Part shown: piece after piece, positions 3,910-52,552 of the stretch
Layout of the letters: the number at the start of each line of letters is the position of its first letter
How positions within the stretch are numbered: the stretch's first letter is position 1
NCBI GenBank assembly: GCA_030602565.1
Contig: JAUVZL010000001.1
Coordinates: forward strand, 47,233-111,232
From: Candidatus Stahliibacteriota bacterium
Lineage (GTDB): Bacteria > Hydrothermota > Tepidihabitantia > SM23-42
DNA: 64,000 nt
Direction of reading: 5' to 3'
Program-made: the position numbers and the translations under genes
Notes under the pieces: generated by a model
Databases searched by the model: none
Seen by the model: the letters and a program-made list of their open reading frames with translations, nothing else
What the model was told of the DNA's origin: nothing

Positions 3910-4815
3910 GTGATTATTGATCCGATTGATCTCAAAATAATACGCCTGCTTGAGTTGCACGGCAGTATCCCACTTCATGAGATCATTAGTAAGTTTCAGA
4001 TCACCAAAGAGGAAGTCCTGCTGCGTGTTAAGAATTTCGAAGACACTGGCTTCATAGAGAACTACGGCATCAAACTGTTCCTGCCAGGCATAATGGGCGG
4101 CAAGTGGTACTGGGGTTGCATCGCTGCGGAAACAACCGCCCGTTTTAAACCAGAACGCTCGATCCCGTGCCTTGAAGAAGTTGTTGAGAATCTAACATTT
4201 CCGCGGGGTGTCTGTCCCAATATCTCACTATTATTTTATACGAAGCAACTGAAGGAAACCTATCGAATCATAAATAAAACACCAGGTATTAAGTATGCCG
4301 AGATCTATAAGATCGACGAATATAATATAGCGGTGCCAAAGATAATGATAAAAGAAGGCTGGCAGCTCATTGCCCGATTGTATGATCAGCTACGTCAGTT
4401 AAACTATGAAAAAATAAATTCAATGGTGAATAACCCTATGTCAGAGAATGATATAAAGCTCTCACGGATGATCTGGTCGAGAAGGAATCGAAAGGGGATT
4501 ATCTCGATTTTCCCGAATTTCAATTGGTCAGCGTTAAAGAACTACGCCCACCTCCACCTGGCGTTAACGACGAAACTGAGGATTAAGGAACTGAGAAGAC
4601 TTGTTAACCGGGTGGGTTTTTCAGGAAACATCACCTCGCGATTCAAAAAGAGATTTATCCAGGTCGAATTCGATATATGGGGTTTTTCAGATATGCAGAA
4701 GATACTCAGTTCTCTTAAGGAAATAGGTGGACTGACTATCGAAGGGTATTCGTTAGCATATAAAAACACAATTAGAAATGCTTGGATTAAAAAATACATC
4801 AAAGAGAGCATATAG
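3910..4815 (+). CDS. hypothetical protein with N-terminal AsnC/Lrp-type winged HTH
   Basis: IDLKIIRLLELHGSIPLHEIISKFQITKEEVLLRVKNFEDTGFIENYG matches the Lrp/AsnC HTH pattern. The remaining ~240 aa are unrecognised. The start is GTG with no in-frame ATG upstream. Confidence 0.55.
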   Translation: MIIDPIDLKIIRLLELHGSIPLHEIISKFQITKEEVLLRVKNFEDTGFIENYGIKLFLPGIMGGKWYWGCIAAETTARFKPERSIPCLEEVVENLTFPRGVCPNISLLFYTKQLKETYRIINKTPGIKYAEIYKIDEYNIAVPKIMIKEGWQLIARLYDQLRQLNYEKINSMVNNPMSENDIKLSRMIWSRRNRKGIISIFPNFNWSALKNYAHLHLALTTKLRIKELRRLVNRVGFSGNITSRFKKRFIQVEFDIWGFSDMQKILSSLKEIGGLTIEGYSLAYKNTIRNAWIKKYIKESI

Positions 4816-5998
4816 TTACATCTCTCCGCTAGTATTCCTGTTCGCCCTGGTTTTAGGCTGTCCAGCTAAGGAAGATGTTACTGAGCAGGTTGTTCGTACT
4901 ACAGTATGTTATGTTGTCAAAAAAGGTGAAGTTCTGGAGGATATTCTCGATCGTGAGCTACCGCATCAATCAACTACTGAGGTGCTGAGTGCTATGAAGA
5001 ACGCCGGGTTTCCGTTCCGTTATTGTATACCTGGCGATTCAGTTACCCTGGCGTTTGAGGATAGTCTTTTCTTAAATCTTACATATAAACAAAGTATCAC
5101 ACGTGAATACTATGTCACAAAGGGAAGTCAACACCTGTGTGTTTCTATGAAACTACCATACATCGATACAGTGGTGTGCATTATCACTGGAGCGATTCAA
5201 TCAACCCTCTATGAAACTCTTTTAGAACAAGGAGAAACACCCAATCTGGTGTTTAGATTTGTGGACATCTTTGCATGGGAAATAGATTTCGTTACTGAAA
5301 CCCAAAAGCATGATTCTTTTTTCGTCCTATTGGAAAAGACCTTCTGTGATTCACGGTTTATTGGATATCAGAACATACTCGCGACGTGTTACAACGGCGA
5401 TATCGGTCTATACTATGGCGTATATTACATGGATGCCACTGGTCATGAGGACTATTACAACTTGAAGGGAGAGTCGCTCCGCAAATCCCTATTGAAATCG
5501 CCTTTAAGATTTTCATATATTAGCTCATATTTCTCAAAACGTAGGTTCCATCCGATTCTAAAGATCTGGCGACCGCACCACGGTTTAGACTACTGTGCAC
5601 CTATTGGTACGCCGATATCCTCAATCGGCGACGGCGTGGTGACTTATAAAGGATGGCGCGGTGGTTATGGCAACCTTGTTGAAATAAGACACAAAAACAA
5701 TTTCAAGACGCGTTACGGTCACCTTTCAAAATTCGCCAAGGGTTTGTACAAAGGGAAAAAAGTCAAGACGGGTGAATTAATAGGCTATGTTGGTTCAACC
5801 GGGCTATCAACCGGGCCACATCTTCATTTCGAGTTGCACAAAAATGGTGTGCCGATAAATCCACTAAAGGTCAAGATCCCTCGAGCACCATCAGTGGGAA
5901 AAAAATATATGACTGATTTCGAACAATATCGTGATTCCCTGTTAAAATATATCGAACAATTATCACAACCTGCTGGAGAAGAAATATCAAAAGATTAA
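4778..5998 (+). CDS. M23 family metallopeptidase (LytM domain), likely lipoprotein
   Basis: The C-terminal HHGLDYCAPIGTPI...GYVGSTGLSTGPHLHFELH carries the M23 HxxxD and HxH motifs. The N-terminal hydrophobic segment ends in LGC (lipobox-like). The start overlaps the previous ORF. Confidence 0.8.
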   Translation: MLGLKNTSKRAYSYISPLVFLFALVLGCPAKEDVTEQVVRTTVCYVVKKGEVLEDILDRELPHQSTTEVLSAMKNAGFPFRYCIPGDSVTLAFEDSLFLNLTYKQSITREYYVTKGSQHLCVSMKLPYIDTVVCIITGAIQSTLYETLLEQGETPNLVFRFVDIFAWEIDFVTETQKHDSFFVLLEKTFCDSRFIGYQNILATCYNGDIGLYYGVYYMDATGHEDYYNLKGESLRKSLLKSPLRFSYISSYFSKRRFHPILKIWRPHHGLDYCAPIGTPISSIGDGVVTYKGWRGGYGNLVEIRHKNNFKTRYGHLSKFAKGLYKGKKVKTGELIGYVGSTGLSTGPHLHFELHKNGVPINPLKVKIPRAPSVGKKYMTDFEQYRDSLLKYIEQLSQPAGEEISKD

Positions 5999-9176: not shown

Positions 9177-11540
9177 TTACTTAATTACCAGTAGCTTATC
9201 TATTTGCTTTAGTCCTCCTGCGTCAATCTCAACGAAATACACACCGCAAGAAAGGTCAATAGGTTTATCGATTTTGTGAGTGCCCTGGGATATATTTCTA
9301 TTTATAAGGGCATCAACAACCCGGCCAGTTAGATCAAATATCCTTACGTTAAGGTCTGTCGTCGAACCGACGTATATTTCAAGATGTAGTCTATTCTTTG
9401 TAATCGTACTGAAATTACTGATTCTCATACCTGGCACATAAGTGTATGTGTTTTCTTCGATACCTGGATTGAAGCTAAGATCTCCAGTTACCGCATAAGC
9501 GAATCCCATTGGACCATTCGGAATACTCTGACCAATGACCGTAATATACCAAAGTCCGGTTTGCGGACTATTGATACGGGCACACTCTTCGACGTTTATA
9601 TTATCCCAGGTTGAAGGGTTTGCAGAGGACTCTCCACCACTGTAGATATTGCCTCGATAATAAGTACCACTCGGTGCAGTTAGTTCAAGATGCAAATTAT
9701 TGACGAGTGTGGAGGGTGCGCCAGATGATGCGGCAGTATCAGTCCAAGCCATGCAAACACGCAGCGGTATTGCCGAATTAACAACGAAGGAATCAGTAAT
9801 TGACATGCCTGTGGTGACACCAATAGTATCATCGATAAGGATCAAATTCCTGGAATTCCCAGCAAAGAATAGAACGCTATCAACATCAATTCTTCCCCAG
9901 CCTACATTAAAACTGGGGATCGTATAACCAACGTTTGGGTCAGCGGAAACCATTGTCATAGCCCTTAGCAAAGCAGCACTCTGATATTTGATTGAATCAG
10001 AGGTATTTGCTGTACCAGATGGGTAAAAACCGGCAAGCAGGTATTGTCGGATTAAACCAATTGCACCATTTGTCGCAGGCGTTGCCATGCTTGTTCCAGA
10101 CATGCCTTTATAGCCTGACGTGCCGGCGCCATTCGCTGACCAGAGTCCAGCCCATAGATTTGTGCCATCACCAGGTGCCATTATATTCGGTTTAATACGA
10201 TTATCCAAAGTAGGACCACGGCTGGAAAACGTGGCTATCTGATTTGAATTAGTGCTATTGAGCATCGCACCCACGGTCAGGATATTTTTTGCAATACCTG
10301 GGTTTCTAATTGTCCTACTCGAATATTCATTACCCGCTGCATAGAGATTGAGAAAATCAGGGTTTGCATAGATATAGGCATCAGTCGAAGCATCCTGTAG
10401 CAAATATGTACCACTTGAATTACCCCAACCCCAAGAGCCTGAATGCTGCAGAATTGTATAGGGTAGTCCACGACCAAGATGTATGGTATCATACATCGCT
10501 GTTAAGTTCTGGGGAACAACGAGTCCACCACTAGCATTGCCGATGTCGACGAAATAAATGCGCGCTTTCTTTGCCATCCCATCATAGGGCTGCGAACCCT
10601 GAGTAGTATCGTCACCAGCGACTGTACAGTTTACATGTGTACCATGATATCCACCTACATCACCAAAGGCCGCGCCTTGATAGTTCTTATATCCAACAAC
10701 TTTACGATGATTTGGATACACGCCCGTTCCTGTAATAGGATAGGAGGGATCATAAAACTGCTGGTGATTAGTAGTGATCCCAGTATCCGTGGTGTTGAGC
10801 ACGACACCATTACCGACCACACCATTATACCATACTTGCCGAGCGCCTGGGTTTGATGGGATACTTGAACGCCAGCCAGTTTGAGTGACCCATTGGCAAT
10901 TCTGATTTGCCACAGTAGGTTCAGACCACATCTGGATCCAGATTATGCCTGATATATTAGCGATGGTGCTGAGTTGTTCAGCATCGAGTATGATTTCCAT
11001 TGTTTTGCAAATAGGATGGTCGATTATCTCCGTAACTTCAAAGCCCATTTCCCTAATCTGCTGCGCTATGTCATTAATATCTTCATTTGGGAAAACCTGT
11101 ACTGTGGTATGGATAATACCTTTTTGATTCAGGATGTCCTTTTCGAGTTTGTACGCAGGTTGATATATCCCGGTCCATTGCACAAATGATTTTGTCTTAG
11201 CCTGTATGATCTGTTCAGCATCAACACGAACAATAAGCGCATAGTGCGGAGCATATCCAAGGATCTCAATTCCATCTGCTTTTAGTTCTTCAGTCCAGGT
11301 TTCATATATCGGACCAGTCATTTGGACCAGATAATACCCGCTTTTTTGGTAGCCACTAATCGTAAGAGCAGTCAGTAGCTGAGGTTCGCCATTACGCGTG
11401 TCAAATTCAATACCATTGGAAAACGAGATGATAGTAGCATTATCATCAGGGAATACCTCACGCGGCATTACCACACCGTGTTTGTGTATATTGGTAGCGC
11501 CCAAACATGTTATGACCAATAATAACGATACCAATTTCAT
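9177..11540 (-). CDS. secreted subtilisin-like serine protease (peptidase S8) with N-terminal propeptide and C-terminal T9SS-type sorting domain
   Basis: The Asp/His/Ser triad motifs DTGI, HGTHVNCTVAG and GTSMATP are present. The C-terminal ~75 aa (VRIFDLTGRVV...GVYFVEI...KLLVIK) matches the T9SS CTD pattern. The signal peptide reads MKLVSLLLVITCLG. The start is set at the second ATG (11540), preceded by GGAGG, rather than 11555. Confidence 0.85.
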   Translation of the reverse strand: MKLVSLLLVITCLGATNIHKHGVVMPREVFPDDNATIISFSNGIEFDTRNGEPQLLTALTISGYQKSGYYLVQMTGPIYETWTEELKADGIEILGYAPHYALIVRVDAEQIIQAKTKSFVQWTGIYQPAYKLEKDILNQKGIIHTTVQVFPNEDINDIAQQIREMGFEVTEIIDHPICKTMEIILDAEQLSTIANISGIIWIQMWSEPTVANQNCQWVTQTGWRSSIPSNPGARQVWYNGVVGNGVVLNTTDTGITTNHQQFYDPSYPITGTGVYPNHRKVVGYKNYQGAAFGDVGGYHGTHVNCTVAGDDTTQGSQPYDGMAKKARIYFVDIGNASGGLVVPQNLTAMYDTIHLGRGLPYTILQHSGSWGWGNSSGTYLLQDASTDAYIYANPDFLNLYAAGNEYSSRTIRNPGIAKNILTVGAMLNSTNSNQIATFSSRGPTLDNRIKPNIMAPGDGTNLWAGLWSANGAGTSGYKGMSGTSMATPATNGAIGLIRQYLLAGFYPSGTANTSDSIKYQSAALLRAMTMVSADPNVGYTIPSFNVGWGRIDVDSVLFFAGNSRNLILIDDTIGVTTGMSITDSFVVNSAIPLRVCMAWTDTAASSGAPSTLVNNLHLELTAPSGTYYRGNIYSGGESSANPSTWDNINVEECARINSPQTGLWYITVIGQSIPNGPMGFAYAVTGDLSFNPGIEENTYTYVPGMRISNFSTITKNRLHLEIYVGSTTDLNVRIFDLTGRVVDALINRNISQGTHKIDKPIDLSCGVYFVEIDAGGLKQIDKLLVIK

Positions 11541-11572
11541 ATGACCTCCTTTCATATATTTAAGTCTCTGAT

Positions 11573-15345: not shown

Positions 15346-18300
15346 TTAACGTACTAATACGATCTGTCTGGTCAGTGTTCTATTGTCTGCATTCAACTGA
15401 CAAAAGTATACACCATTAGGTACTACCCTTTCAAGCTCATCAGTACCGTTCCATGACACCGATGTCACAGATTCATTCATATCATACGGATCAACGTTGA
15501 ATACTCTAATAAGACGTCCAGTTACATCATAGATTTTCAGCGAAGCATTCGTTGTATTCAGTATTTGGCATCTAATAATAGTGTTTTGTTTAAATGGATT
15601 CGGATAAATACTGAGCTGGGTGACGATATCTGATAAACCGTGTTCCAGAACGCCGGTGCCAGTATTATAGAGAACTGTGACATTATTTGAATTGTAGTTT
15701 CCACAAGCAATATCAAGTGCACCATCCAGGTCGTAATCAGCAGACATTATCCCCCAAGGGCTCGTTCCAACAGTATACGTTGCCAAATTACCATACGTTC
15801 CATCACCATTATTCAGTAATACAGCAACAGTATTTGTGCCATTATTGCTGCCGATCAGGTCAATGTCACCATCGCCATCAAAATCACCACCGTGGAGAGC
15901 TCTGGTATTATTGCCTGTTGCGTATCCTGTCGGATTAGAAAAAGTACCGTCTCCATTATTAAGTATCACAGCGATATCATTGCCGCTATAATTAGCGGTC
16001 GCAAAGTCAACATAATTATCGCCATTAAAATCATTACCATAAACTGCGGTTGGATTATCACCAACTGCATAATTTGTGATTTCCGGGAAATTACCATCAC
16101 CATCATTCGACAATATTGAGATATTATCATTCCCAGCATTGGTTACACCAAGGTCCAGATCACCATCATTATCAACATCTTTAATAGCTACACCTCGTGC
16201 CCAGGTCCCGGCAGTATACGTGTACGGACCTGAATAACTACCATTACCATTATTTAACATTACCCGGACATTTGTTCCAGAACCCCATCCATCAGTCATT
16301 ACAAGATCAATGTCATTGTCAGCATCAATATCACCGCCAGCGAGATTCTGTCCAAGAATTGCTGGTGCATAAGTAGCAAATACCGTGAAAACGCCACTGC
16401 CATTATTTTTCAAAATAACCAGATGCGATGTGCCTGGCTGATTATGTGCTGAGGCGAGGTCTATGTCGCCATCACTGTCAAAGTCGGCACCAAATAGAGC
16501 GATCGGGTCACCCTCAATCGAAGTGTATACTGGTGCGGCAAAAGTCCCGTCACCATTATTAAGCAGAACGACAACACTGTTAGGATTAGACGTTGCCGCA
16601 ATATCGATATCCCAGTCACCATCAAAATCACCGGCAAACAGACCACGCGGTTGATTGCCTGCAGTAAAGTTGAGAGGATTTTCAAATGTTCCATCTGATT
16701 GGGTCGAAACAGCAGCTGTAAAATCCCAGATAAATCCATCCAGATAAGGCCCGATCAATGACTGTATATCCTTAGACAATATCGCAGTGACGACTTCACC
16801 ATCTATAAAATCGATATCAGGATCAAGACTGACTGTCGATGTGCCGCTACTATAAATAATAGTACCTGTGTGGATACCGGTCTGCACACCCTGCACTGTA
16901 AAGGTTGAGTTATTCAGGGTCAAACTGTCCACCTCAAGGCTGAAAGTGGCATTGATATCTGTTGATTGCGGAACATCTAATTGGTACTGAACAGGATCTG
17001 TCGATGTAACATTCAGTGCTGCCTCGTTAAGCAATACAGACATACTGTCAACGCTATAATCACCGGTCACTATGTCCATGTCACGGTCATTGTCAAAATC
17101 GCCTGATAAGAGACACGACGGGCTGCTGCCTGTAATAAAGTGGGTTGCGGTAGCGAAACCACCATTGCCATTTCCCAGCAAAATAGAGACTGTGTTTGCA
17201 TTCACATTAGAGACCGCAAGATCATGATTCCCATCAGCATCATGATCAGTAGCATATATTCCACTCGGACCATCACCCGCTGCAAAATGCACGGCTGATC
17301 CGAATGTACCGTCACCATTGCCGAGCAACCGCGACACATTATCCGAATCGAAGTTTGCGGTCGCGATATCAAGATCGCCGTCACCATTGAAATCTGCACT
17401 ATAGACACCATGAGGATTCGTACCAACAGAAAAGTTGTCAACCGCACCAAACCCGCCAGTGCCATCCCCTAGAAGGATAGAAATGTTGTTCGTTGTGCTG
17501 TTCGTGGTTACGACATCGAGATACCCATCATTATTAAAGTCTCCACACACAATTCTGAGCGGTGACCCACCAACTGTATAGTTCATCGGACCACTGAACG
17601 TGCCGTTGCCATCTCCTATGAGTATGGAAACCGTCCCCGAATTGCGATTAACTACAGCAATATCAAGGAGACCATCACAATTGAAATCCCCGCAACAGAT
17701 ACCCTGTGGTGCGATATCTGCAGCATACGAACTCCCAACCGTGAACGTGCCGTCCCCATTACCGAGTAGTATCGATACATCGTTGCTGCCTTCATTGGTG
17801 ACTGCAAGATCAAGCCATGGATCCACGTTGAAATTGAAATTACTCGTGCATATACCTGTCGGTCCAGATCCTACCGGGTAATTAACTGCGGTTGCAAACG
17901 TGCCATCTCCGTTACCGATTAGCACTGATACTTCATCTGAATAGTAATTGGCAAAGGCAACATCCAGGTTATCATCCCGATAAAAATCTCCTGTGACCCC
18001 ATCCAACGGACCGTCCCCAAGCATATACTGGTCACTGTGCGTAAACAATCCAGAACCGCTATCAACACGGCAAACGAACTGCCAGATAAAACCCTCAAGG
18101 GAATCACCAGAAGGAGTCCTGATATCCTTTGTAAGAACTGCGGTCACTATCTCTCCACAATGAAAAGTGCTATCAGGATCGATCGTGACAAAGCGCGCTG
18201 TGGTGTCATATGTAATCGTACTTGATATAAATCCCGTGAACTTTCCATGGATCTGCGTAGTGTTTACAGTAAACGATACAGGATCCATGTCGAGGTTGAA

Positions 18301-19242
18301 CATCGCTGAAGCACTTACCGTATCATAAATATTCTGCTCGTTCATTGCCGGGATCGTGAGCAGGACCACAGGAAAATCAGCCGTCGCACCCGGACCTCCA
18401 TAAGCACCCATATCGTTGCGCGATCCATCAGGGTCATTGTACTGTGCTGCAGGATTTCCTGAATCAATACACGGTGAGCCAGTCTGTAAATGGAAGTCAT
18501 TGGGTGGATCCACATAGAGTGGATCAGCTGAAATACTCCCGGTACCAGGTGAGCAATTCTGATAATTGGTAGCATTGTTCCATACATTGTTATAGGTAAG
18601 CACCGGGGGTGTCCCCACTGCATAAACGCCATATAGAGTACTTGACGTAACTATATTATTCATTACCGTTGCACCATAACCACCGCCATCATTAATACCA
18701 ATCCTATTTCCAACCACGGTATTATTGATAACTACAGGGTCAGCACTTATTACTATTCCATCAAAATTCTGATTAACTACAACATTATTGTGAATATACG
18801 CATTAGATTGATTCCAGGTAGCTATGCCAAAGTCATTGCCTTCAACTCGATTATTACTAATGTCTGGCTTGGCACCACTATTACAGAAAATCCCAGCACC
18901 ACCTGGCATACCGCCACCAGATACTGCACCGGTAACAGTAAATCCCTGGAACTTGGTATCATTGTCAATATCATTGCCTGAAGCAAACACAACGTCACCG
19001 CTATTGCCACCACCATCAATAATTGATAATCCTTCGCCAGTCCCTCGTACAACAACATCTGCTTTCAAGGTTATTTCTTCATTATATGTACCTGGTGCAA
19101 CGACAACAATGTCACCGCCATTGGCAGCATCAATGCCCTGCTGTATAGTCGGATAATCTTGCGGTACCCTTATTATTATCGCATGGAGCAATAGAGGGAA
19201 AAACGCAAAGGAAACAATTAGTATTGTAAAAAATTTCTTCAT
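15346..19242 (-). CDS. giant secreted protein (1298 aa): N-terminal right-handed beta-helix region, ~12 FG-GAP/VCBS-type repeats, C-terminal T9SS-type sorting domain
   Basis: A signal peptide is present. There are repeated GDFNGDGxxDI / GDFDxDGDxD motifs. The C-terminus reads YPNPFKQNTIIRCQ...IYDVTGRLIRVF...GVYFCQL...IVLVR. Confidence 0.85.
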   Translation of the reverse strand: MKKFFTILIVSFAFFPLLLHAIIIRVPQDYPTIQQGIDAANGGDIVVVAPGTYNEEITLKADVVVRGTGEGLSIIDGGGNSGDVVFASGNDIDNDTKFQGFTVTGAVSGGGMPGGAGIFCNSGAKPDISNNRVEGNDFGIATWNQSNAYIHNNVVVNQNFDGIVISADPVVINNTVVGNRIGINDGGGYGATVMNNIVTSSTLYGVYAVGTPPVLTYNNVWNNATNYQNCSPGTGSISADPLYVDPPNDFHLQTGSPCIDSGNPAAQYNDPDGSRNDMGAYGGPGATADFPVVLLTIPAMNEQNIYDTVSASAMFNLDMDPVSFTVNTTQIHGKFTGFISSTITYDTTARFVTIDPDSTFHCGEIVTAVLTKDIRTPSGDSLEGFIWQFVCRVDSGSGLFTHSDQYMLGDGPLDGVTGDFYRDDNLDVAFANYYSDEVSVLIGNGDGTFATAVNYPVGSGPTGICTSNFNFNVDPWLDLAVTNEGSNDVSILLGNGDGTFTVGSSYAADIAPQGICCGDFNCDGLLDIAVVNRNSGTVSILIGDGNGTFSGPMNYTVGGSPLRIVCGDFNNDGYLDVVTTNSTTNNISILLGDGTGGFGAVDNFSVGTNPHGVYSADFNGDGDLDIATANFDSDNVSRLLGNGDGTFGSAVHFAAGDGPSGIYATDHDADGNHDLAVSNVNANTVSILLGNGNGGFATATHFITGSSPSCLLSGDFDNDRDMDIVTGDYSVDSMSVLLNEAALNVTSTDPVQYQLDVPQSTDINATFSLEVDSLTLNNSTFTVQGVQTGIHTGTIIYSSGTSTVSLDPDIDFIDGEVVTAILSKDIQSLIGPYLDGFIWDFTAAVSTQSDGTFENPLNFTAGNQPRGLFAGDFDGDWDIDIAATSNPNSVVVLLNNGDGTFAAPVYTSIEGDPIALFGADFDSDGDIDLASAHNQPGTSHLVILKNNGSGVFTVFATYAPAILGQNLAGGDIDADNDIDLVMTDGWGSGTNVRVMLNNGNGSYSGPYTYTAGTWARGVAIKDVDNDGDLDLGVTNAGNDNISILSNDGDGNFPEITNYAVGDNPTAVYGNDFNGDNYVDFATANYSGNDIAVILNNGDGTFSNPTGYATGNNTRALHGGDFDGDGDIDLIGSNNGTNTVAVLLNNGDGTYGNLATYTVGTSPWGIMSADYDLDGALDIACGNYNSNNVTVLYNTGTGVLEHGLSDIVTQLSIYPNPFKQNTIIRCQILNTTNASLKIYDVTGRLIRVFNVDPYDMNESVTSVSWNGTDELERVVPNGVYFCQLNADNRTLTRQIVLVR

Positions 19243-33638: not shown

Positions 33639-35915
33639 ATGAACAGATTTCTTAAAATCTTACTTATAATCATAGGTACAATCATCGTCATCCTGATTGC
33701 AGGCTATTTCCTAATAACGAGCTACCTAACGCCCCAAACAGTACGGAATATCGCTGGAAAGGTTGCTACTGAAGCTATCCAATATCCAGTTGAGATCGGT
33801 CAAGTTGGTTTGCATTTTGGATTCAAGGTGGGTATTACAATAGACGATGTCAAAATACCCAATGCCAAAGGTTTTAGCCGTGAACCTATGGTCGAAATTG
33901 ACCGAACCACCCTAAATTTAAAACTTCTGCCTTTATTTGGACGCCGGATAGTCATAAGTGGTCTGGATTTCTCAGGGATAAAGGTCAAAGTTGAAAGAAA
34001 TAAACAGAACAAACTGAACTTCGCAGCTATCATACCCAAAGAAGCACAGGGCTCGAGTTGGTCACTATCTCTGTCTTCAGTCACTATTTCCCAAGGTAAT
34101 CTATCCTATATTGATGCGCTGACCAAAACTGAAATAGAGGTTAAGGATATCGATCAAGAAATTAAATTTCAAGGCAGCACGATATCTGCGGCTGGTAAGA
34201 GCACGGTATACATCCTGAAAAACAAAACACTGCCAGAAATGATCGTGAAAGTCGGCAATAGCGTTGCGTACGACACCTTGAAAAAAAATCTCCGAATTAA
34301 GAAGCTTACGGCGTTGTACGATCCGATACATCTTTCAATCGATGGGACAATAAGTGAGTTAGAGAAACTCGATATCAATGCCAAACTTAAAGTCGACGAT
34401 ATGTCAAAACTTCCTACACTGATCCCGGCCAATTCACGTCCGGAAAAACTTAGCGGCACGCTCATCGCAACATGCACAGTAAGTGGTACAACTAAGAAGA
34501 TCGTTGTTGCTGGAAACAGTGAACTCAAAAACGTATCTTTCACACCAAAAGGATTGAACCGAGGATTTACAAAAATCTACGGTTCTTTATCATTTACGAG
34601 TAAAGCAATTAGAGATATATCACTACATGCGATGTTCGGAGATACAAAGTTGGAACTTAGCGGAGCAGTAAATAACCTTAATAACCCGATATTGAACCTC
34701 AAGACTAAAGCAGTAGGAGACCTCCAGGATTTAGAGATGCTCATAACCGACATGAAAGGCATACAATTGAAAGGTCCACTTACCCTCAATCTAAAGATCA
34801 AAGGCAGCGCTAAGAAACCATCATACCATGGAGATTATAACATAAACAACGGATTCATAAATGGCATCGGCTTAGCGAAACCGATAAGCAATTTTATCCT
34901 TAAGGGTACGATAGAGAACAGCGTTGCCAGAATCAGCAAGTGTGGCGGCAGCATTGGGGGTTCGGATTTTTCATTGACTGGCAAGATAACCGACTTAAAA
35001 AAACCAGTAATTGAGATCAACAATACCTCACATCTTATTGATCTTGACGAAATTCTACCAAAGCCAGAAGAACGCAAGCAACAACAAGGAAAGACAGCAC
35101 CTATCACACTCCGTGGTAATACCAAAATAAACAAGTTTGTCGGCGCAAACATGGAGTTCAAAAACATAAACACAAGTTTCTCCTATGAAAATGAAGTAAT
35201 AGATTTAAGAAAATGTACGGCAGATGCTTTTGATGGCAAAGTGCAGTTTGATCTTTATTATAATGCAAATAGCCCTGAACCCTATCGTATCAACACGAAA
35301 ATGACTTCGGTATCAACCAAGAAAATCCTAAAACGCTTCTTGAATTTTGAGAATCTGGAAGGCAAACTAACTGGCGTCAGTAACTTCCAAGGCCGCGGTT
35401 TCAGTAAAAATGATGTTATCGTCAATCTCAGTGCCTCGGGTAATATCAAGTTAATTAACGGTGTATTCAGAAATTTCGATTTCATTACGAAACTCCTTGC
35501 TTGGCTCGGTATAAAAGACTACAAAGTACTGAATTTCAACGATCTGCTGGTCAATTTCAATATTGATAAGGGTAAAACAAAAGTGAAAGACTGGGCGCTA
35601 TCATCAAAAGTCGGTACTTTTCTTACGAATGGTTTCATCGGGCTAAATGGAAACGTGAATTTGAACGTAACGACTACGCTCAAGAAGGAATACTCAGATA
35701 TTGTGAAAAAGTACCACGGAGATTGGATATTCCCGATTGATAACAAAGGACAGGCAACAATCGATATTAAGATCACCGGAAAACTCAGCTCACCTAAATT
35801 CAGTCTTGATAAGAATAAAATTAAGCAGCGCATCAAAGGTAAGCTGAAGAATGAATTCAATAAGAAAAAGAAAGAATGGGAAAATAAGATAAAAGATCTT
35901 TTAAAAGGAAAATGA
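33639..35915 (+). CDS. AsmA-family protein (N-terminal TM anchor, long beta-rich periplasmic region)
   Basis: The N-terminal TM reads ILLIIIGTIIVILIAGYFLI. The 700-aa body resembles AsmA/TamB-like architecture and the C-terminal tail is Lys-rich. The SD is strong. Confidence 0.55.
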   Translation: MNRFLKILLIIIGTIIVILIAGYFLITSYLTPQTVRNIAGKVATEAIQYPVEIGQVGLHFGFKVGITIDDVKIPNAKGFSREPMVEIDRTTLNLKLLPLFGRRIVISGLDFSGIKVKVERNKQNKLNFAAIIPKEAQGSSWSLSLSSVTISQGNLSYIDALTKTEIEVKDIDQEIKFQGSTISAAGKSTVYILKNKTLPEMIVKVGNSVAYDTLKKNLRIKKLTALYDPIHLSIDGTISELEKLDINAKLKVDDMSKLPTLIPANSRPEKLSGTLIATCTVSGTTKKIVVAGNSELKNVSFTPKGLNRGFTKIYGSLSFTSKAIRDISLHAMFGDTKLELSGAVNNLNNPILNLKTKAVGDLQDLEMLITDMKGIQLKGPLTLNLKIKGSAKKPSYHGDYNINNGFINGIGLAKPISNFILKGTIENSVARISKCGGSIGGSDFSLTGKITDLKKPVIEINNTSHLIDLDEILPKPEERKQQQGKTAPITLRGNTKINKFVGANMEFKNINTSFSYENEVIDLRKCTADAFDGKVQFDLYYNANSPEPYRINTKMTSVSTKKILKRFLNFENLEGKLTGVSNFQGRGFSKNDVIVNLSASGNIKLINGVFRNFDFITKLLAWLGIKDYKVLNFNDLLVNFNIDKGKTKVKDWALSSKVGTFLTNGFIGLNGNVNLNVTTTLKKEYSDIVKKYHGDWIFPIDNKGQATIDIKITGKLSSPKFSLDKNKIKQRIKGKLKNEFNKKKKEWENKIKDLLKGK

Positions 35916-48147: not shown

Positions 48148-48555
48148 TCAACCGCGCTGTATTCGCTCACCGTCTCTCGTTGCATTCTTAAGATACTGAA
48201 GACATTTGCTTTCCATCGTCTTGGTTTCCGCTTTTGTCTTATGGTCATAACCTACGATATGCAGTAAACCGTGTATAATGTAATAGCATAATTCGTCAGT
48301 GTTGCTGACCCGGTCATATGATATATAGATTTCAGAAACCTCTTCCATACGAAATGAAATCACATTTGTTGGCTTATCTTTTTTAAGGAACTTTCTGTTT
48401 AATTCCTTAAGATAATTATCATTGGTTAGGATTATGTTGAGGTTTTTGAGCTCAGTTTCTTCGGCTACTAACGTCTTCTCAACAAGAACAATAATATTTT
48501 TTCTAACACTCAACGATAAACAACAGGCGACCTGGTTGAAAATATTAACTTGCAA
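48148..48555 (-). CDS. ybeY: rRNA maturation RNase YbeY
   Basis: HGLLHIVGYDH metal-binding motif. Length is 135 aa. Confidence 0.9.
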   Translation of the reverse strand: MQVNIFNQVACCLSLSVRKNIIVLVEKTLVAEETELKNLNIILTNDNYLKELNRKFLKKDKPTNVISFRMEEVSEIYISYDRVSNTDELCYYIIHGLLHIVGYDHKTKAETKTMESKCLQYLKNATRDGERIQRG

Positions 48556-50652
48556 TCAAAATTTTCTTTTTTTTCCGTCTGCCTTTTCGCTGGTCTTTTT
48601 TCTACTCTGATTATATTCTACACGGGGATGGAAAACACCAGTAAGGATTGACAGAAATGCGGTACTCACCTGGACCAGGTCCTGTCGCGTAATTGGACAT
48701 TCATCGAGTTGACCATCGACAAATTTCTTTTCAATATTATCTTTAAGCATTTTTTGCAATTTCGTGACGGTGATGTTTTTCTCACTCCTCGCTGCAGCCT
48801 CAACAGAATCGGCAAGCATGACCACTGCAGATTCCTTGGTTTTTGGCTTAGGACCTGGATACCGAAAAGTATCTTCGTTGATATCTGGAGAAGTATCCAG
48901 TGCTTTTTTATAAAACAATTCAATGGTTGTTGTACCATGGTGTTGTTCGATAATACTGATGAGCTTCTTTGGCAATTTCATTTTCTTCGCCATTTCCACA
49001 CCATCTTTGACATGGGATATGATAACCAGAGTACTCATTTGAGGCTTGAGCGTATCATGCGGATTTTTAACGCCGAGTTGATTCTCAATATAATACTCAG
49101 GTTTCTTCAGCTTACCGATATCATGATAGTACGCGCCGACCCTTGCCAGAATCGGATCCGCCCCAATCACCCGGGCGGCGGCTTCAGCCAGGCTACCGAC
49201 AACAATTGAATGATGATAAGTACCTGGTGCCTCCATAGCCATCTCTTTGAATAATGGCAGATTAAGGTTGCCTTGTTCAAGTAACGTTAGATCAGTACAG
49301 AAATCAAAAAGCTTTTCAAACAAAGGTAATAGAAGAACGAAAAGCACGCTTCCAAAAATGCTGTTTAGGACACCTTCACCAAGATGCAATAAGATGAGTT
49401 TGCCTTTCAATAAATACATATCGGCAAAGAGTATCGCCGCCATGTTGGCGATTGCAATATATATCATCGGTCTGTAAAGAGATAATCTAGAACTGATCGT
49501 TCGTGATGAAAAAGCAGCTACTACCCCACTGACTAACAAAAAAATGAATATCGACAGGGAATTTAGGGTAACACCAAACAAGGAAGCAAAGACCAAAGTT
49601 ATGATAATCGCTATGTAGAAATCAAAATACAGTGCAAACAACAGAATGAAAAAGGAAATTGGTAGGAGATATATTGTATCAATTGCATATGCAGTTTTAC
49701 CAACCAGCAAATAGATGGCTGAAAGTAAAGCAACGAAATAAATATTTTTCCCCTCGAAGAGTTTCACTTTCGCAACTAAACTTATATTTAGTAAAAGAAA
49801 TATTGCGGCAAAGTAAAGCAAATTCCGAAAGAGCATAGTTTTCAGTATTTCCCAGGTGCCAACCGATATATAAGTAGTTTCCAATGCCGCGATTATTTCT
49901 CTTGCTTCCTTGGTGACCCGCTTATGTTTCTCTACAATGATCTCGCCTTTCAGGATCTTCCCTTTTGTCTTGGATACGTTGCCAAAAACCCCATCTATTC
50001 TCTCTTCTGTTTTCTCTACGTTGTAGATAACATTCGGGATAAGCAGAAAACTAACCAACATTCGCTGTTCAGGCTTTTTTCGATAACTGAGTATACTCTC
50101 TGCCTCAGCAATTGAGTATAGCCTTTCTAAGGATTCAACTATCTCTTTATCGCCACTTGCGATCGTGATTATTCTAAACTGAGGGGGTTTTGCATCAACG
50201 ACGCCAGCTGCATATATGTTACCAAGTTCATCAATGAGGTCTTCGTAAGTGTTCCTAAATCGAGTTCTGGTCAGGTATCTTATTACAATACCGTCAAGAG
50301 CATATTCTTTCTGGGTTAAGAAAACCAGGGAATCTTCAGTGAGCGACGAAATATCACGGAGTGAATCAATGAGGTTTACAAGACCGTCCAACTTTTTCAT
50401 GACCATTTTGTATACGGTATTATCCAAATCAAAAACAGGTGGAATTCTTGCAGCAATTCCCTTTTTCTCTTCATATAGTTCCTGCTCGGTTCTGGGCACG
50501 AGAAAATCATAAGGGGCGATTATGTTCGAAGTTGCTATTTCGCCTTCGTTAATGGTATATTTTGTGGGTACTCTCGGCGGTGGGAATATTATATTTAGTA
50601 AGAAGAAAATACCAATGAGTATGAGGTATTTAGGTTGTATCTTTGGCTTCAT
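48556..50652 (-). CDS. 7TM-receptor with intracellular HD hydrolase (PgpH/YqfF-like)
   Basis: A 7TMR-HDED TM block is followed by an HD domain ([11 protein letters not shown]...YHDIGK). This is the conserved phoH-yqfF-ybeY arrangement. Confidence 0.85.
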
Positions 50653-51535
50653 AAGCTTTGATTATCTTCTGAACCAGATTATGCCTGGCTACATCTCTTT
50701 CATCCAAATACACAAATCGTATCGGCTGAATGTCTTTCAGAATATGTTGAATTTCAATCAAACCAGAATATATGTTAGATGGTAAATCGACCTGAGTGAT
50801 GTCACCGGTAATAACTACCTTTGACCTCCAGCCCATCCTCGTTAAGAACATCTTCATCTGTATGCTGGTCGTATTCTGTGCTTCATCAAGTATGATAAAT
50901 GAATCGTTGAGTGTTCTACCCCGCATGAAAGCAAGGGGTGCGACTTCGATAGTCTTCATTGTGAGGTATTTCTTGACACGATCATAGGGAAGAAAATCGT
51001 GGAGCGCGTCATAGAGCGGTCTCAGATAAGGGTCAACCTTTTCCTCAAGTGCACCGGGTAAAAACCCCAAGGACTCACCAGCTTCGACTGCTGGTCTCGT
51101 TAGGATTATTCGTTCAACCCTTTTAGACATCAAATACGATACAGCCTTTGCCACACCGAGATAAGTTTTACCCGTACCAGCTGGTCCTATACTGATTACA
51201 ATATCGTAGTCATCGATAGCTTTCAGATACCCTGCCTGTCCAGTGCTTTTTGCCTTAACCAACCGCTTTGGTGTGGTTACGCATGACGGGTCTTTTTCCT
51301 CCGCTTTACTAATCCTCTGGTGCTCGTCCTTTCTTGCCGTGTCCAGATCCCTCAACACTTTCTTCACCGCCTTGGCTGCCTTTTTGATATTTGCTTCATC
51401 GCCCTTTAAGTGAATACACTGATCGCGCATAGATGCAATGATGTTGAATTTGGTCTGGATGTTTTTGAGCAGTTCATCTTGGAAACCAAGAACTTCGGTG
51501 GGAACGTAGTCAGATATGGAGATTGATACTTTCAC
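50630..51535 (-). CDS. PhoH-like ATPase (YbeZ)
   Basis: [10 protein letters not shown] Walker A and the PhoH core. Length is 301 aa. Confidence 0.9.
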
Positions 51536-51574
51536 ATTTAAGGGAGGGGCAGCTAACTGCCCCTCCCATAATTT

Positions 51575-52171
51575 TTAGTCGTGTGGTATCACAAATTCCT
51601 GTCTTGGGTATATCCAATCAGGATCTTTGATTTTGTCTTTGTTTGCCTCATATATTTCAGGCCATCTTCTTGAATTCGAGTAGATTGAATAATATGAAGC
51701 AATTAACGTAAGACAATCGCCAGGTATTACGCTATAGTTCTCTAAATAGGGAATCATTAATACCCAACCCGGATATATAAGGTTTGGATTATTGATTTTA
51801 TCCTTGTTTGCTTCGAATATCATAGGCCATTTTGCGCCTGCATGATACACTTCCCTCATGCCGGCAATCTTGGACAACCAATCTCCCTCCACAACCTTAT
51901 AACGTCCGCACTGGCATATTTCCCAGGTTTCTTTTAATTCATCGAGCTTTGCCGTAAGTCCATCACGGGTTGTTTCTAGACCAGCAACCTCTGATCGCAG
52001 TGCTTCAACATCGGAAACGAGCTCCGATATTTTGGCTTCAGCTTCTGCAATCTGCTGTTGTAGGGCTAATAGCTCGACTTGAGCTTGTTCCTCGGTTAGC
52101 TTATCCTCGGCAAACATGAAGGCAGGAACCAATAAGAAAAGAACCAGACAAGTAGAAGCGATCTTTTTCAT
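51575..52171 (-). CDS. secreted coiled-coil protein with two C-terminal LysM domains
   Basis: The signal peptide reads MKKIASTCLVLFLLVPAFMFA, with AAGGAGG 6 nt before the ATG. An Ala/Glu/Leu-rich heptad region is followed by two YxVxxGDxL...IY..N...I..P..I motifs. Confidence 0.7.
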   Translation of the reverse strand: MKKIASTCLVLFLLVPAFMFAEDKLTEEQAQVELLALQQQIAEAEAKISELVSDVEALRSEVAGLETTRDGLTAKLDELKETWEICQCGRYKVVEGDWLSKIAGMREVYHAGAKWPMIFEANKDKINNPNLIYPGWVLMIPYLENYSVIPGDCLTLIASYYSIYSNSRRWPEIYEANKDKIKDPDWIYPRQEFVIPHD

Positions 52172-52181
52172 TTTATCCTCC

Positions 52182-52439
52182 TTATTTCTTGCAGCGTGTA
52201 TCGATCTTGTTCTGCAACTCATCGATTTGGCTATTGAGGTTAGCAATCTCGCTTTCGAGCGCCATTTTCATCGAGGGCAGTTCATCGAATTCAGCTTCAA
52301 GCTCAGCGATTTTTGATTGTGCAGCTTCCAGGGCGGCTCTAGCTTCCGCAAGTGCATCTAAAGTCTCCTGATTTGCCATTTTTGGACCACAACCAATAAC
52401 GACAATAGTAAGGAGAAGAACCGCAAGTATTTTTTTCAT
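52182..52439 (-). CDS. small coiled-coil lipoprotein, Lpp (Braun lipoprotein)-like architecture
   Basis: A signal peptide plus lipobox VIGC, a ~60-aa heptad coiled coil and a C-terminal ...TRCKK ending in Lys. GGAGGTG lies 6 nt before the ATG. Confidence 0.5.
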   Translation of the reverse strand: MKKILAVLLLTIVVIGCGPKMANQETLDALAEARAALEAAQSKIAELEAEFDELPSMKMALESEIANLNSQIDELQNKIDTRCKK

Positions 52440-52552
52440 AATGCCACCTCCTTATGGGCTTATTTATACTAAATCATATTCATAATTCCTCAAATGTCAA
52501 TAGGGAAATAGAGGTTCTCTTGACATTTCGCCTAATCTGACTATTATTTCCA

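Follow-up and report, generated by a model that had tools for sequence, protein, structure and literature searches.

The 64-kb stretch of DNA analysed here (64,000 nucleotides (nt) of a Candidatus Stahliibacteriota contig, hereafter the window) carries on its minus strand two adjacent genes, which encode a small lipoprotein (LP) and an exported protein with two LysM domains (LM). The original prediction for this locus had likened LP to Lpp, the Braun lipoprotein of Escherichia coli, and had suggested that LP and LM could provide covalent and/or non-covalent tethering of the outer membrane (OM) to peptidoglycan. A membrane-peptidoglycan tether is still the best functional reading of the locus, and the two proteins do appear to act as a pair; what did not hold is the picture of two tethers side by side, as the co-variation of Cys83 in LP with Cys86 in LM points to one heteromeric stalk. 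We consider it probable that LP and LM are the subunits of a single envelope stalk that would tether a membrane to peptidoglycan. The two genes were described with the aid of an alignment of 48 LP homologues (A1; 54-100% identity, most of 85 amino acids (aa)), an alignment of 34 LM orthologues (A2; mean column identity 77%), and AlphaFold2 (AF2) models, which were of monomers only and were built with homologue alignments (LP, md3ffd8bbd7c9; LM, m387ab0443b86). Their features are listed below, with a slash marking a predicted cleavage site:

52182..52439, minus strand: LP gene, 85 aa, with a predicted mature form of 69 aa from lipidated Cys17 (open reading frame (ORF) translation, homologues)
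52389..52391, minus strand: codon of Cys17, the lipobox cysteine (VIG/C) and predicted acylation site (invariant in A1)
52191..52370, minus strand: LP helix, residues 24-83, 60 residues, ~9 nm as a coiled coil (AF2, heptad pattern)
52191..52193, minus strand: codon of Cys83, the sole free cysteine of mature LP, predicted to form a disulfide with LM Cys86 (conserved in at least 90% of A1; co-varies with the partner cysteine)
52185..52187, minus strand: codon of Lys85, the C-terminal lysine and a candidate Lpp-like cross-linking residue (conserved in the core clade only)
51575..52171, minus strand: LM gene, 198 aa, with a signal peptide, a 60-residue helix and two LysM domains; predicted periplasmic (ORF, Pfam, AF2, homologues)
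52109..52171, minus strand: LM signal peptide, residues 1-21, signal peptidase I type (FMFA/EDK), without a lipobox (sequence)
51914..52093, minus strand: LM helix, residues 27-86, ending at Cys86 (codon 51914-51916, heptad position d) (AF2, heptad register)
51749..51910, minus strand: LysM domain 1, residues 88-141 (best Pfam PF01476 stretch 91-141; beta-alpha-alpha-beta in AF2; PDB profile match to the LysM domain of Kbp, 7pvc, E 4.8e-8)
51581..51739, minus strand: LysM domain 2, residues 145-197 (second Pfam stretch; PDB profile matches over 145-197; Foldseek)

The LP translation reads MKKILAVLLLTIVVIGC followed by GPKMANQ and ends in IDTRCKK, its tail being Cys83-Lys-Lys85. The lipobox, the coiled coil of about 60 residues and the terminal lysine that had been described for this protein were all confirmed. 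V-I-G-C17 is read directly from the ORF, and C17-G18 was invariant across the 48 LP homologues; the last residue is Lys85 (in the ending TRCKK); and the AF2 model is a single helix over residues 24-83 (mean predicted local distance difference test scores (pLDDT) of 91-98 in 10-residue blocks over residues 31-80), in agreement with the heptad pattern. The description of the neighboring gene was also borne out, as LM has the signal peptide, the coiled coil and a pair of LysM domains, which gave a two-stretch match to Pfam PF01476 with an E of 5e-12 and 46 bits versus a cut-off of 20.9. In its AF2 model residues 27-86 form a single helix (block mean pLDDT 87-95 over residues 31-80). The cleavage region (...FA/Q/E-E/D-K-L-T-E-E, in which only the first slash is the cleavage site) was kept across A2, and Cys86 was invariant in it. 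Each of the two 60-residue helices thus terminates at its own cysteine.

Foldseek comparison of the LM model with the PDB returned the tandem LysM domains of a Thermus thermophilus NlpC/P60 protein (probability 0.93-0.99). The Foldseek matches were to LysM domains only, and neither Foldseek nor the profile search against the PDB gave a solved structure with the whole LM architecture. The LM of the window has CQC (C86 and C88; Cys88 codon 51908-51910) at a site where close relatives, including the 97% identical L001, have CQY.

Co-variation of cysteines in the two helices

To compare the two proteins across genomes we used two sets of loci. For the first, the LysM-protein alignment was scanned against one genome per GTDB species, which gave 188 relatives, and the best 80 of the 188 were taken (L001-L080); these belong to WOR-3, Stahlbacteria and Hydrothermota, Delongbacteria, Gemmatimonadota, Zixibacteria, Krumholzibacteriota and Aegiribacteria. 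The second consisted of 80 metagenome loci from a separate scan ranked on a distant family member. Mature LP usually has one cysteine besides the lipidated one, and the LM helix usually has one cysteine. Among 114 unique pairs, cysteine was present in both partners in 93 and in neither partner in 21, and there was no pair in which one partner only had it (Fisher 2e-23).

The positions of the cysteines were also matched. In the 73 short-type pairs (those other than the long-type pairs described below) with a single cysteine in each partner, the position in LP followed that in LM with r=0.998, a slope of 0.95 and a mean offset of 0.75 +/- 1.8 residues, values that include offsets of up to 5 residues arising from the crude signal-peptide cleavage rule by which the mature N-termini were set. 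A permutation with one representative per cysteine state gave p=1.25e-4. No correction for phylogeny was applied to these statistics, although independent events are numerous on the tree. Matched positions fell into at least seven states (eight with the long-type pairs), and there were several concerted losses. The states observed in pairs with one cysteine per partner, and the state without cysteine, were as follows:

LP Cys 67 / LM Cys 64-67: core WOR-3 clade, including the window (C83/C86 in precursor numbering)
LP Cys 58 / LM Cys 59: L032, L034
LP Cys 51 / LM Cys 53-55: L062, L064, L083, L084
LP Cys 48 / LM Cys 50: L046
LP Cys 31 / LM Cys 30-31: L060, L114, L130
LP Cys 30 / LM Cys 30: long-type pairs L131, L163
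LP Cys 17-18 / LM Cys 16-22: Hydrothermota (spread from the crude signal-peptide cut)
LP Cys 15 / LM Cys 14-15: L036, L041, L055, L058
Cysteine absent in LP and LM: L038, L044, Zixibacteria/Gemmatimonadota, Aegiribacteria and others

Two pairs had two cysteines in each partner at similar spacing, namely L093 (7 and 21 in LP, 32 and 45 in LM) and L143 (7 and 22 in LP, 29 and 42 in LM). In the long-type pairs, residue counting matched the N-terminal cysteines (30/30 in L131 and L163) and gave no clear register toward the C-terminus (e.g., L085). When placed on a tree of the LysM domains, the cysteine changes were scattered, and the Hydrothermota clade alone had two independent joint losses (L038 and L044, both nested among cysteine-bearing relatives) and a joint relocation (L046). 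Of 63 LM cysteines, 53 occupied heptad position d; the cysteine of LP was at d or the adjacent e.

Gene conversion or paralogy was rejected as the source of the matching cysteines. This is because the in-register identity of LP and LM within a genome was 11-30%, versus 40-52% between orthologues across cysteine-state boundaries, from which it follows that the cysteine was relocated after LP and LM had diverged, and in both genes each time. The simplest reading of the co-variation is that the LP and LM helices lie parallel and in register from their N-termini, with the cysteines touching. On the strength of these comparisons, a hetero-complex of LP and LM in parallel register appears very likely. 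In the periplasm, the touching cysteines would most likely form an interchain disulfide, a conclusion in which we have good, if lesser, confidence.

The proposed stalk and competing explanations

Based on these data, we propose the following arrangement. LP would be lipidated at Cys17, and the 69-residue mature protein would be held in a membrane by its N-terminus. That membrane is most likely the OM, at its inner leaflet, because LP has no Asp at +2 (C-G-P-K) and the organism is diderm; an OM can be assumed because the window encodes two proteins with type IX secretion sorting domains and an AsmA-family protein (listed in the last section), which are features of diderms of the Fibrobacteres-Chlorobi-Bacteroidetes (FCB) group. 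LM would be exported via its cleavable signal peptide and have no anchor of its own. LP helix 24-83 and LM helix 27-86 would pack alongside each other in parallel register, both N-termini being at the membrane, and the LP Cys83-LM Cys86 disulfide would lock the stalk at its membrane-distal end, just before LysM domain 1. The LysM domains would thereby be held ~9 nm from the membrane (60 residues at 1.5 Å per residue) and would bind peptidoglycan glycan strands non-covalently. The complex would thus be both a membrane-peptidoglycan tether and a spacer, with the lipid anchor and the wall binder on separate polypeptides. Lys85, at the peptidoglycan-proximal end, may add a covalent link like that of Lpp or its Salmonella relative LppB, in this clade only. 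The comparative data bear out the pairing of the genes, the parallel in-register contact of the helices and the contact of the cysteines. The disulfide, the OM location, the peptidoglycan binding of the LysM domains and the stoichiometry are what we infer, and for the role as a membrane-peptidoglycan tether, taken by itself, our confidence is moderate.

The Krumholzibacteriota-type loci have a lipobox on both LP and the LM partner, which places the N-terminus of LM at the membrane, as the parallel arrangement requires (L069-L072, L074, L078-L080, L087, L088, L090, L093, L128, L135, L138 and L143). The LM lipoproteins of these loci have ~25 extra N-terminal residues before the paired cysteine. 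A fusion of the LP and LM genes as their origin was rejected, as the small LP gene is still present there.

Several points weigh against this stalk. The +2 Asp rule was set only for enterobacteria, and outside Proteobacteria an outer- and an inner-membrane location are undecidable from sequence. The carriers are mostly anaerobic, which puts periplasmic thiol oxidation in doubt, and no DsbA-like CxxC thioredoxin motif was found in ORFs of >120 codons in the 64-kb window. Metal binding or a redox switch would be other roles open to the paired cysteines. Cysteine numbers are unequal in five pairs (L085, L111, L117, L128 and L135), and the 21 of 114 pairs that lack cysteine indicate that the disulfide is not essential to the module; the disulfide would therefore be a staple and not the basis of assembly. 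The nearest solved LysM relative is the cytoplasmic Kbp/YgaU, so that peptidoglycan binding by LM would be an expectation drawn from the LysM family as a whole. Finally, a tether role does not account for the conserved site of the pair before phoH, the gene for a 7TMR-HD protein and ybeY. In two of the pairs with unequal numbers, L128 and L135, the extra LP cysteine is four residues from the C-terminus (LKCGSGR) and has no counterpart in the partner helix; it may pair elsewhere.

The explanation that comes closest to the heteromeric stalk is an Lpp-like covalent tether, in which LP would form a homo-oligomer, an L,D-transpeptidase would join Lys85 to a stem peptide, and LM would be separate or auxiliary. 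We consider this unlikely. LP does have the architecture that was compared with Lpp, i.e., the lipobox, the 60-residue helix and the terminal Lys, and the Ala-rich heptad core near its N-terminus recalls the Lpp alanine zipper. That much of the comparison stood, and membership of the Lpp family did not. The match of LP to NF040598 (Lpp/OprI alanine-zipper) was weak, at 19.1 bits versus a cut-off of 43, and hhalign of the 48-sequence LP profile with E. coli Lpp gave a probability of 43.6% with 18% identity over 34 columns, the level expected for unrelated coiled coils. LP was rejected as a member of the Lpp family (Pfam LPP PF04728; NF040598; PRK15396) on these two results, and the absence of homology counts against the covalent reading. 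NF007428 (YqhH) matched LP with an E of 0.0097, and the other profile matches of LP (DivIC, FliJ, FtsL, LysB etc.) were all sub-threshold coiled-coil noise. The original prediction had named an L,D-transpeptidase as something to look for; no YkuD active-site motif (S-x-G-C-[IVL]-R) was found in ORFs of >120 codons in the 64-kb window, a weak negative that applies to the window only.

A point in favor of a covalent link is the striking conservation of the terminal lysine in the clade of the window. All 74 unique complete LPs of the core WOR-3 clade (74 of 74) have Lys as their last residue. Their post-Cys tails come in 17 versions, which include KK, NK, MK, AK, KKK, KKWK, KKMKSTK and KKQGGGK; at the remaining tail positions the share of Lys is only 52%, and the first residue after the cysteine is variable. 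These tails are good evidence of selection on the terminal Lys within the clade. One partial locus, L016, ends in CKKR. Across all 114 unique pairs a C-terminal Lys was present in 56. A GY ending was found in 24 unique pairs of the Hydrothermota-type clade, and other clades have endings of their own, each conserved within its clade: GSGR (KKGSGR) in Krumholzibacteriota, GGSR(Y) in Aegiribacteria and EGE in Zixibacteria. A consistent lack of the terminal Lys among homologues had been given as a finding that would tell against the Lpp comparison, and the outcome was divided, with Lys kept throughout the window's clade and absent in the GY, GSGR, GGSR(Y) and EGE clades. Because other clades end differently, the family as a whole does not share a mechanism based on the C-terminal Lys, although within this clade the residue may serve for covalent attachment.

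Whole orthologous clades thus lack the lysine that an Lpp-like tether would use, and the features in common are the lipobox, the helix length, the LM partner and the paired cysteine. The cysteine co-variation further indicates that LP contacts LM and does not act alone. Salmonella LppB forms disulfides through its penultimate Cys and is cross-linked through its terminal Lys to peptidoglycan, with lower efficiency than Lpp, so a Cys of this kind and a cross-linking Lys can coexist. A covalent linkage in the organism of the window, as an addition to the heteromer that is confined to its clade, seems to us similarly doubtful. In the Aegiribacteria-like loci L073, L075, L076, L077, L100, L147 and L151 the LPs end in GGGSR(Y), GGTR or GGTGR, and in L073 and L075-L077 the LM partner ends in a GGSR(Y) tail like that of LP, a C-terminal tag that the two proteins have in common.

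A second alternative, which we regard as improbable, is that LP and LM recruit or activate a septal hydrolase, as regulators of peptidoglycan remodelling or division comparable to NlpD, EnvC, DipM or PcsB/CwlO-type proteins. LysM domains with coiled coils are frequent in regulators of division-site hydrolases, several homologues carry the Joint Genome Institute (JGI) name "peptidoglycan hydrolase CwlO-like protein", and an M23 peptidase lipoprotein is encoded elsewhere in the window (4778-5995). The weak sub-threshold matches to DivIC, FtsL, PcsB and ZapB also point in this direction, but they are far under the cut-offs and represent generic coiled-coil similarity. LP and LM have no LytM/M23, NlpC/P60 or amidase domain, LysM alone being above threshold, and no hydrolase, FtsEX or division gene was linked to the pair in any locus, the neighbors being aspS or ispD and phoH.

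It is less probable still that the pair works with the products of the downstream genes phoH, 7TMR-HD (PgpH-like), ybeY and corC, for example by sensing the wall in the periplasm and signalling to the HD phosphohydrolase through its extracellular 7TMR-HDED domain. In its favor, phoH is downstream of LM in 76 of the 80 genome loci and 7TMR-HD in 69 of the 80, in at least six phyla; ybeY and corC follow where annotation existed, and the order is the same in Calditrichaeota and in the close relative L081. However, a hairpin, often with a T-run, parts the pair from phoH in all loci examined, no sequence feature joins the proteins, and the synteny could be a gene order inherited in one superphylum. 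The phoH-ybeY cluster is also widespread in bacteria that have no LP-LM pair, which counts against the idea.

That LP and LM are independent or homo-oligomeric, with cysteines that match through paralogous ancestry (duplication or gene conversion), is very improbable: the coiled coils are weakly similar, tblastn with LM runs into the LP gene in L001, L047, L051 and L057, and local LP-LM identity reaches 26-45% over 38-66 residues in WOR-3-type pairs, but the in-register identities, the matched states with their concerted losses and the lack of one-sided pairs described above all argue against it. An origin as a phage spanin (Rz/Rz1) was rejected as well, since TIGR03495 (LysB) gave 18.9 bits versus a cut-off of 92.75 and the genes next to the pair, wherever a locus was annotated or searched, are housekeeping genes.

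Relationship to known tethers and distribution of the pair

The survey of Witwinowski et al. considered four OM attachment systems, Lpp, Pal, OmpA and OmpM, of which Lpp is confined to a subclade of the Gammaproteobacteria and Pal is the typical tether of the Gracilicutes. The proposed LP-LM stalk resembles each of several known systems in part. As in Lpp and LppB, a small lipidated protein that is nearly all one coiled-coil helix (58 mature residues in Lpp, 69 in LP) would have its C-terminus toward the peptidoglycan. The coiled-coil helix of Lpp has about 56 residues. With LppB, LP further has in common a Cys beside the C-terminal Lys that makes an interchain disulfide (predicted in LP), and in the window's clade the terminal Lys itself. 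In contrast, Lpp is a homotrimer with its own covalent link to the wall, whereas the partner of LP would be another protein with LysM domains and the cysteines would pair across the two proteins; moreover, there is no detectable homology, and many orthologous clades of LP lack the terminal Lys.

OmpM, SlpA and Omp-alpha of diderm Terrabacteria and Thermotogae offer a parallel in design, with an anchor, a long coiled-coil stalk as spacer and a distal domain that binds the wall non-covalently. These are single chains that are anchored by a beta-barrel or transmembrane helix and bind pyruvylated polymers or modified peptidoglycan through an SLH domain, whereas in LP-LM the lipid would be on one chain and the tandem LysM domains on the other, and the lineage is Gracilicutes/FCB. 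A Pfam scan at E<=10 found no SLH or porin domain in all 24 LM families or in the best 25 of 79 LP families, with only LysM above threshold. Pal is also an OM lipoprotein system that binds peptidoglycan non-covalently, but it combines an OmpA-like domain and a flexible linker in one chain and works with Tol, while LP-LM would have a two-chain design and has neither an OmpA-like domain nor Tol genes.

A LysM protein is tied to OM stability in Borrelia burgdorferi. There, BB0323 is needed for OM stability and cell fission, its C-terminal LysM binds borrelial peptidoglycan, and it is processed to N- and C-terminal polypeptides that are both functional; fission and OM organization were unaffected when the LysM motif was deleted. 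In comparison to LM, and by its published description only, BB0323 is a single gene product with one LysM. The closest LysM sequence relatives of LM are Kbp/YgaU and LipL71/LruA of Leptospira, which have the same LysM subtype (W-P-x-I-Y-E-A-N ... N-P-N-L-I-Y-P-G). LM gave 89.9 bits versus a cut-off of 134 with NF008399 (Kbp/YgaU, PRK11198), where the match covered the LysM part only (74-142) without BON, and 99.4 bits versus a cut-off of 600 with NF033163 (LipL71/LruA), again for LysM only (149-196, profile 412-459). LM was not assigned to either family, the scores being far under the cut-offs. LM has a signal peptide, whereas Kbp is cytoplasmic and has a BON domain, and Kbp and LipL71 have neither the 60-residue helix nor a partner lipoprotein.

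Full-text searches of the literature found no description of a lipoprotein/LysM heteromeric stalk. As envelope tethers are already known, the new element would be the split, disulfide-stapled two-chain design and its wide spread in FCB-related candidate phyla. We tentatively hypothesize, with confidence somewhat under an even balance, that this split, Lpp-sized stalk, in parallel register and usually stapled by a movable interchain disulfide, represents an undescribed class of tether that is ancestral to WOR-3, Hydrothermota, Calditrichota, KSB1, Zixibacteria, Gemmatimonadota, Krumholzibacteriota, Aegiribacteria and Delongbacteria and is a main determinant of OM-peptidoglycan attachment and spacing in them, with the WOR-3 core maybe also attached covalently via Lys. 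How the OM is fastened to the wall in diderms outside Proteobacteria is largely unknown, and LP-LM, which occurs in many uncultivated phyla, would add a fifth design to these four. Orientation, register and contact residues can already be read from the natural "cysteine scan", and the length of the stalk could serve as a probe of what sets periplasm width in the lineages that carry it. More generally, co-variation of paired cysteines in neighboring genes can expose coiled-coil heteromers without structure prediction.

The original prediction had also called for the distribution of the pair to be examined, and the pair proved to be a conserved module in the following lineages: WOR-3, Hydrothermota, Krumholzibacteriota, Zixibacteria, Gemmatimonadota, Aegiribacteria, Delongbacteria and Calditrichaeota. 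In KSB1 the LM partner alone was recorded. In the 80 genome loci, which were retrieved by LM alone, an LP gene is found ~10 nt upstream wherever upstream sequence exists, and among the 80 metagenome loci LP is upstream of LM in most of those that could be resolved. The exceptions were L123, which has an odd N-terminus and in which LP was not found, and L142 and L146, which have a LysM paralogue without LP. This distant paralogue is preceded by a long coiled-coil protein ending in a hydrophobic segment, with no small lipoprotein upstream. Mature LP is 66-75 residues long, bar a few loci (L066 is shorter), and nearly all of it is helical heptads. In the window, the LP helix has Pro55 at a site that is Thr, Arg or Asn in relatives.

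Public data hold at least 339 homologues of the short-type LM at E<=1e-5, and proteins of this kind are annotated only as "LysM peptidoglycan-binding domain-containing protein", "YgaU" or "hypothetical". KSB1 and Calditrichaeota have a long-type LM partner of ~282 aa (range ~277-287), for which the search gave at least 1468 proteins at E<=1e-10, and in the one Calditrichaeota genome examined a small lipoprotein gene precedes it. The long-type loci in our sets were L065, L067, L068, L085, L101, L125, L131, L140, L157-L161 and L163. In their LM, ~75 additional helical residues separate the N-terminal coiled coil from LysM domain 1, whereas the length of LP is unchanged at ~65 aa; the added stretch might fold back along the stalk.

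Start sites, expression signals and genomic context

The LM gene starts at ATG 52171, 10 nt after the LP stop. TTG 52246, the start of the program-listed ORF, was rejected, as the Shine-Dalgarno sequence TAAGGAGGA is 6 nt before the ATG and orthologues begin at MKK..., most being listed at 195-199 aa. This Shine-Dalgarno sequence overlaps the LP stop codon. The remaining signals are these:

52473..52500, minus strand: sigma-70-like promoter of the LP-LM operon, TTGACA, 16 nt spacer, TATGAT (11/12 consensus; ~34 nt upstream of the LP start codon)
52520-52547, plus strand: divergent sigma-70-like promoter for ispD (11/12 consensus)
52444..52453, minus strand: LP Shine-Dalgarno sequence AAGGAGGTGG (read from sequence)
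51542..51567, no strand assigned: GC-rich hairpin with an 11 bp stem and 9 GC pairs between the LM stop and the phoH start, a candidate terminator or attenuator (sequence)

The two 11/12 promoters stand back to back in one 113-nt intergenic region, serving the LP-LM operon (minus strand) and ispD-dxr-rseP (plus strand). A hairpin is directly 3' of the LM stop in all loci examined (37 loci), with differing arms, compensatory changes and, in many, a T-run. Because of this, the LP-LM pair is probably a bicistronic transcription unit of its own, maybe attenuated. The 11/12 promoter, the strong Shine-Dalgarno sequences of both genes and the conserved hairpin further indicate that the unit is probably autonomous and well expressed. 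In the core clade the hairpin ends ~5-8 nt before the GTG start of phoH, which has no visible Shine-Dalgarno sequence, and its placement suggests attenuation or occlusion of phoH expression. The promoter, Shine-Dalgarno sequences and hairpin, together with protein-level conservation in >120 loci, are evidence that both genes are real.

In the window, the LP-LM pair is directly upstream of phoH, 7TMR-HD (PgpH-like), ybeY and corC (48148-51535, minus strand). The upstream neighbor across the loci is aspS (Krumholzibacteriota and Calditrichaeota) or ispD. LP and LM homologues came from metagenome bins of candidate division WOR-3/Stahlbacteria, the lineage to which the organism of the window belongs. 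The nearest genome locus was L001 (Stahlbacteria), with 96-97% identity and a gene order identical to that of the window; no identical-sequence record was found for the window LP or the window LM.

The features elsewhere in the window on which the assumption of an OM is based are the following:

9180-11555, minus strand: subtilase with a type IX secretion C-terminal sorting domain, 792 aa, large, secreted (domain scan)
15349-19242, minus strand: FG-GAP/Big_5 repeat protein with a type IX secretion C-terminal sorting domain, 1298 aa, large, secreted (domain scan)
33639-35912, plus strand: AsmA/YhdP-family protein, 758 aa

The AsmA/YhdP family is implicated in lipid transport to the OM. The M23 peptidase at 4778-5995 (plus strand) has a Csd3-like N-terminal domain and lies in a predicted lipoprotein (LVLGC); it is a candidate peptidoglycan endopeptidase, unlinked to the LP-LM pair.

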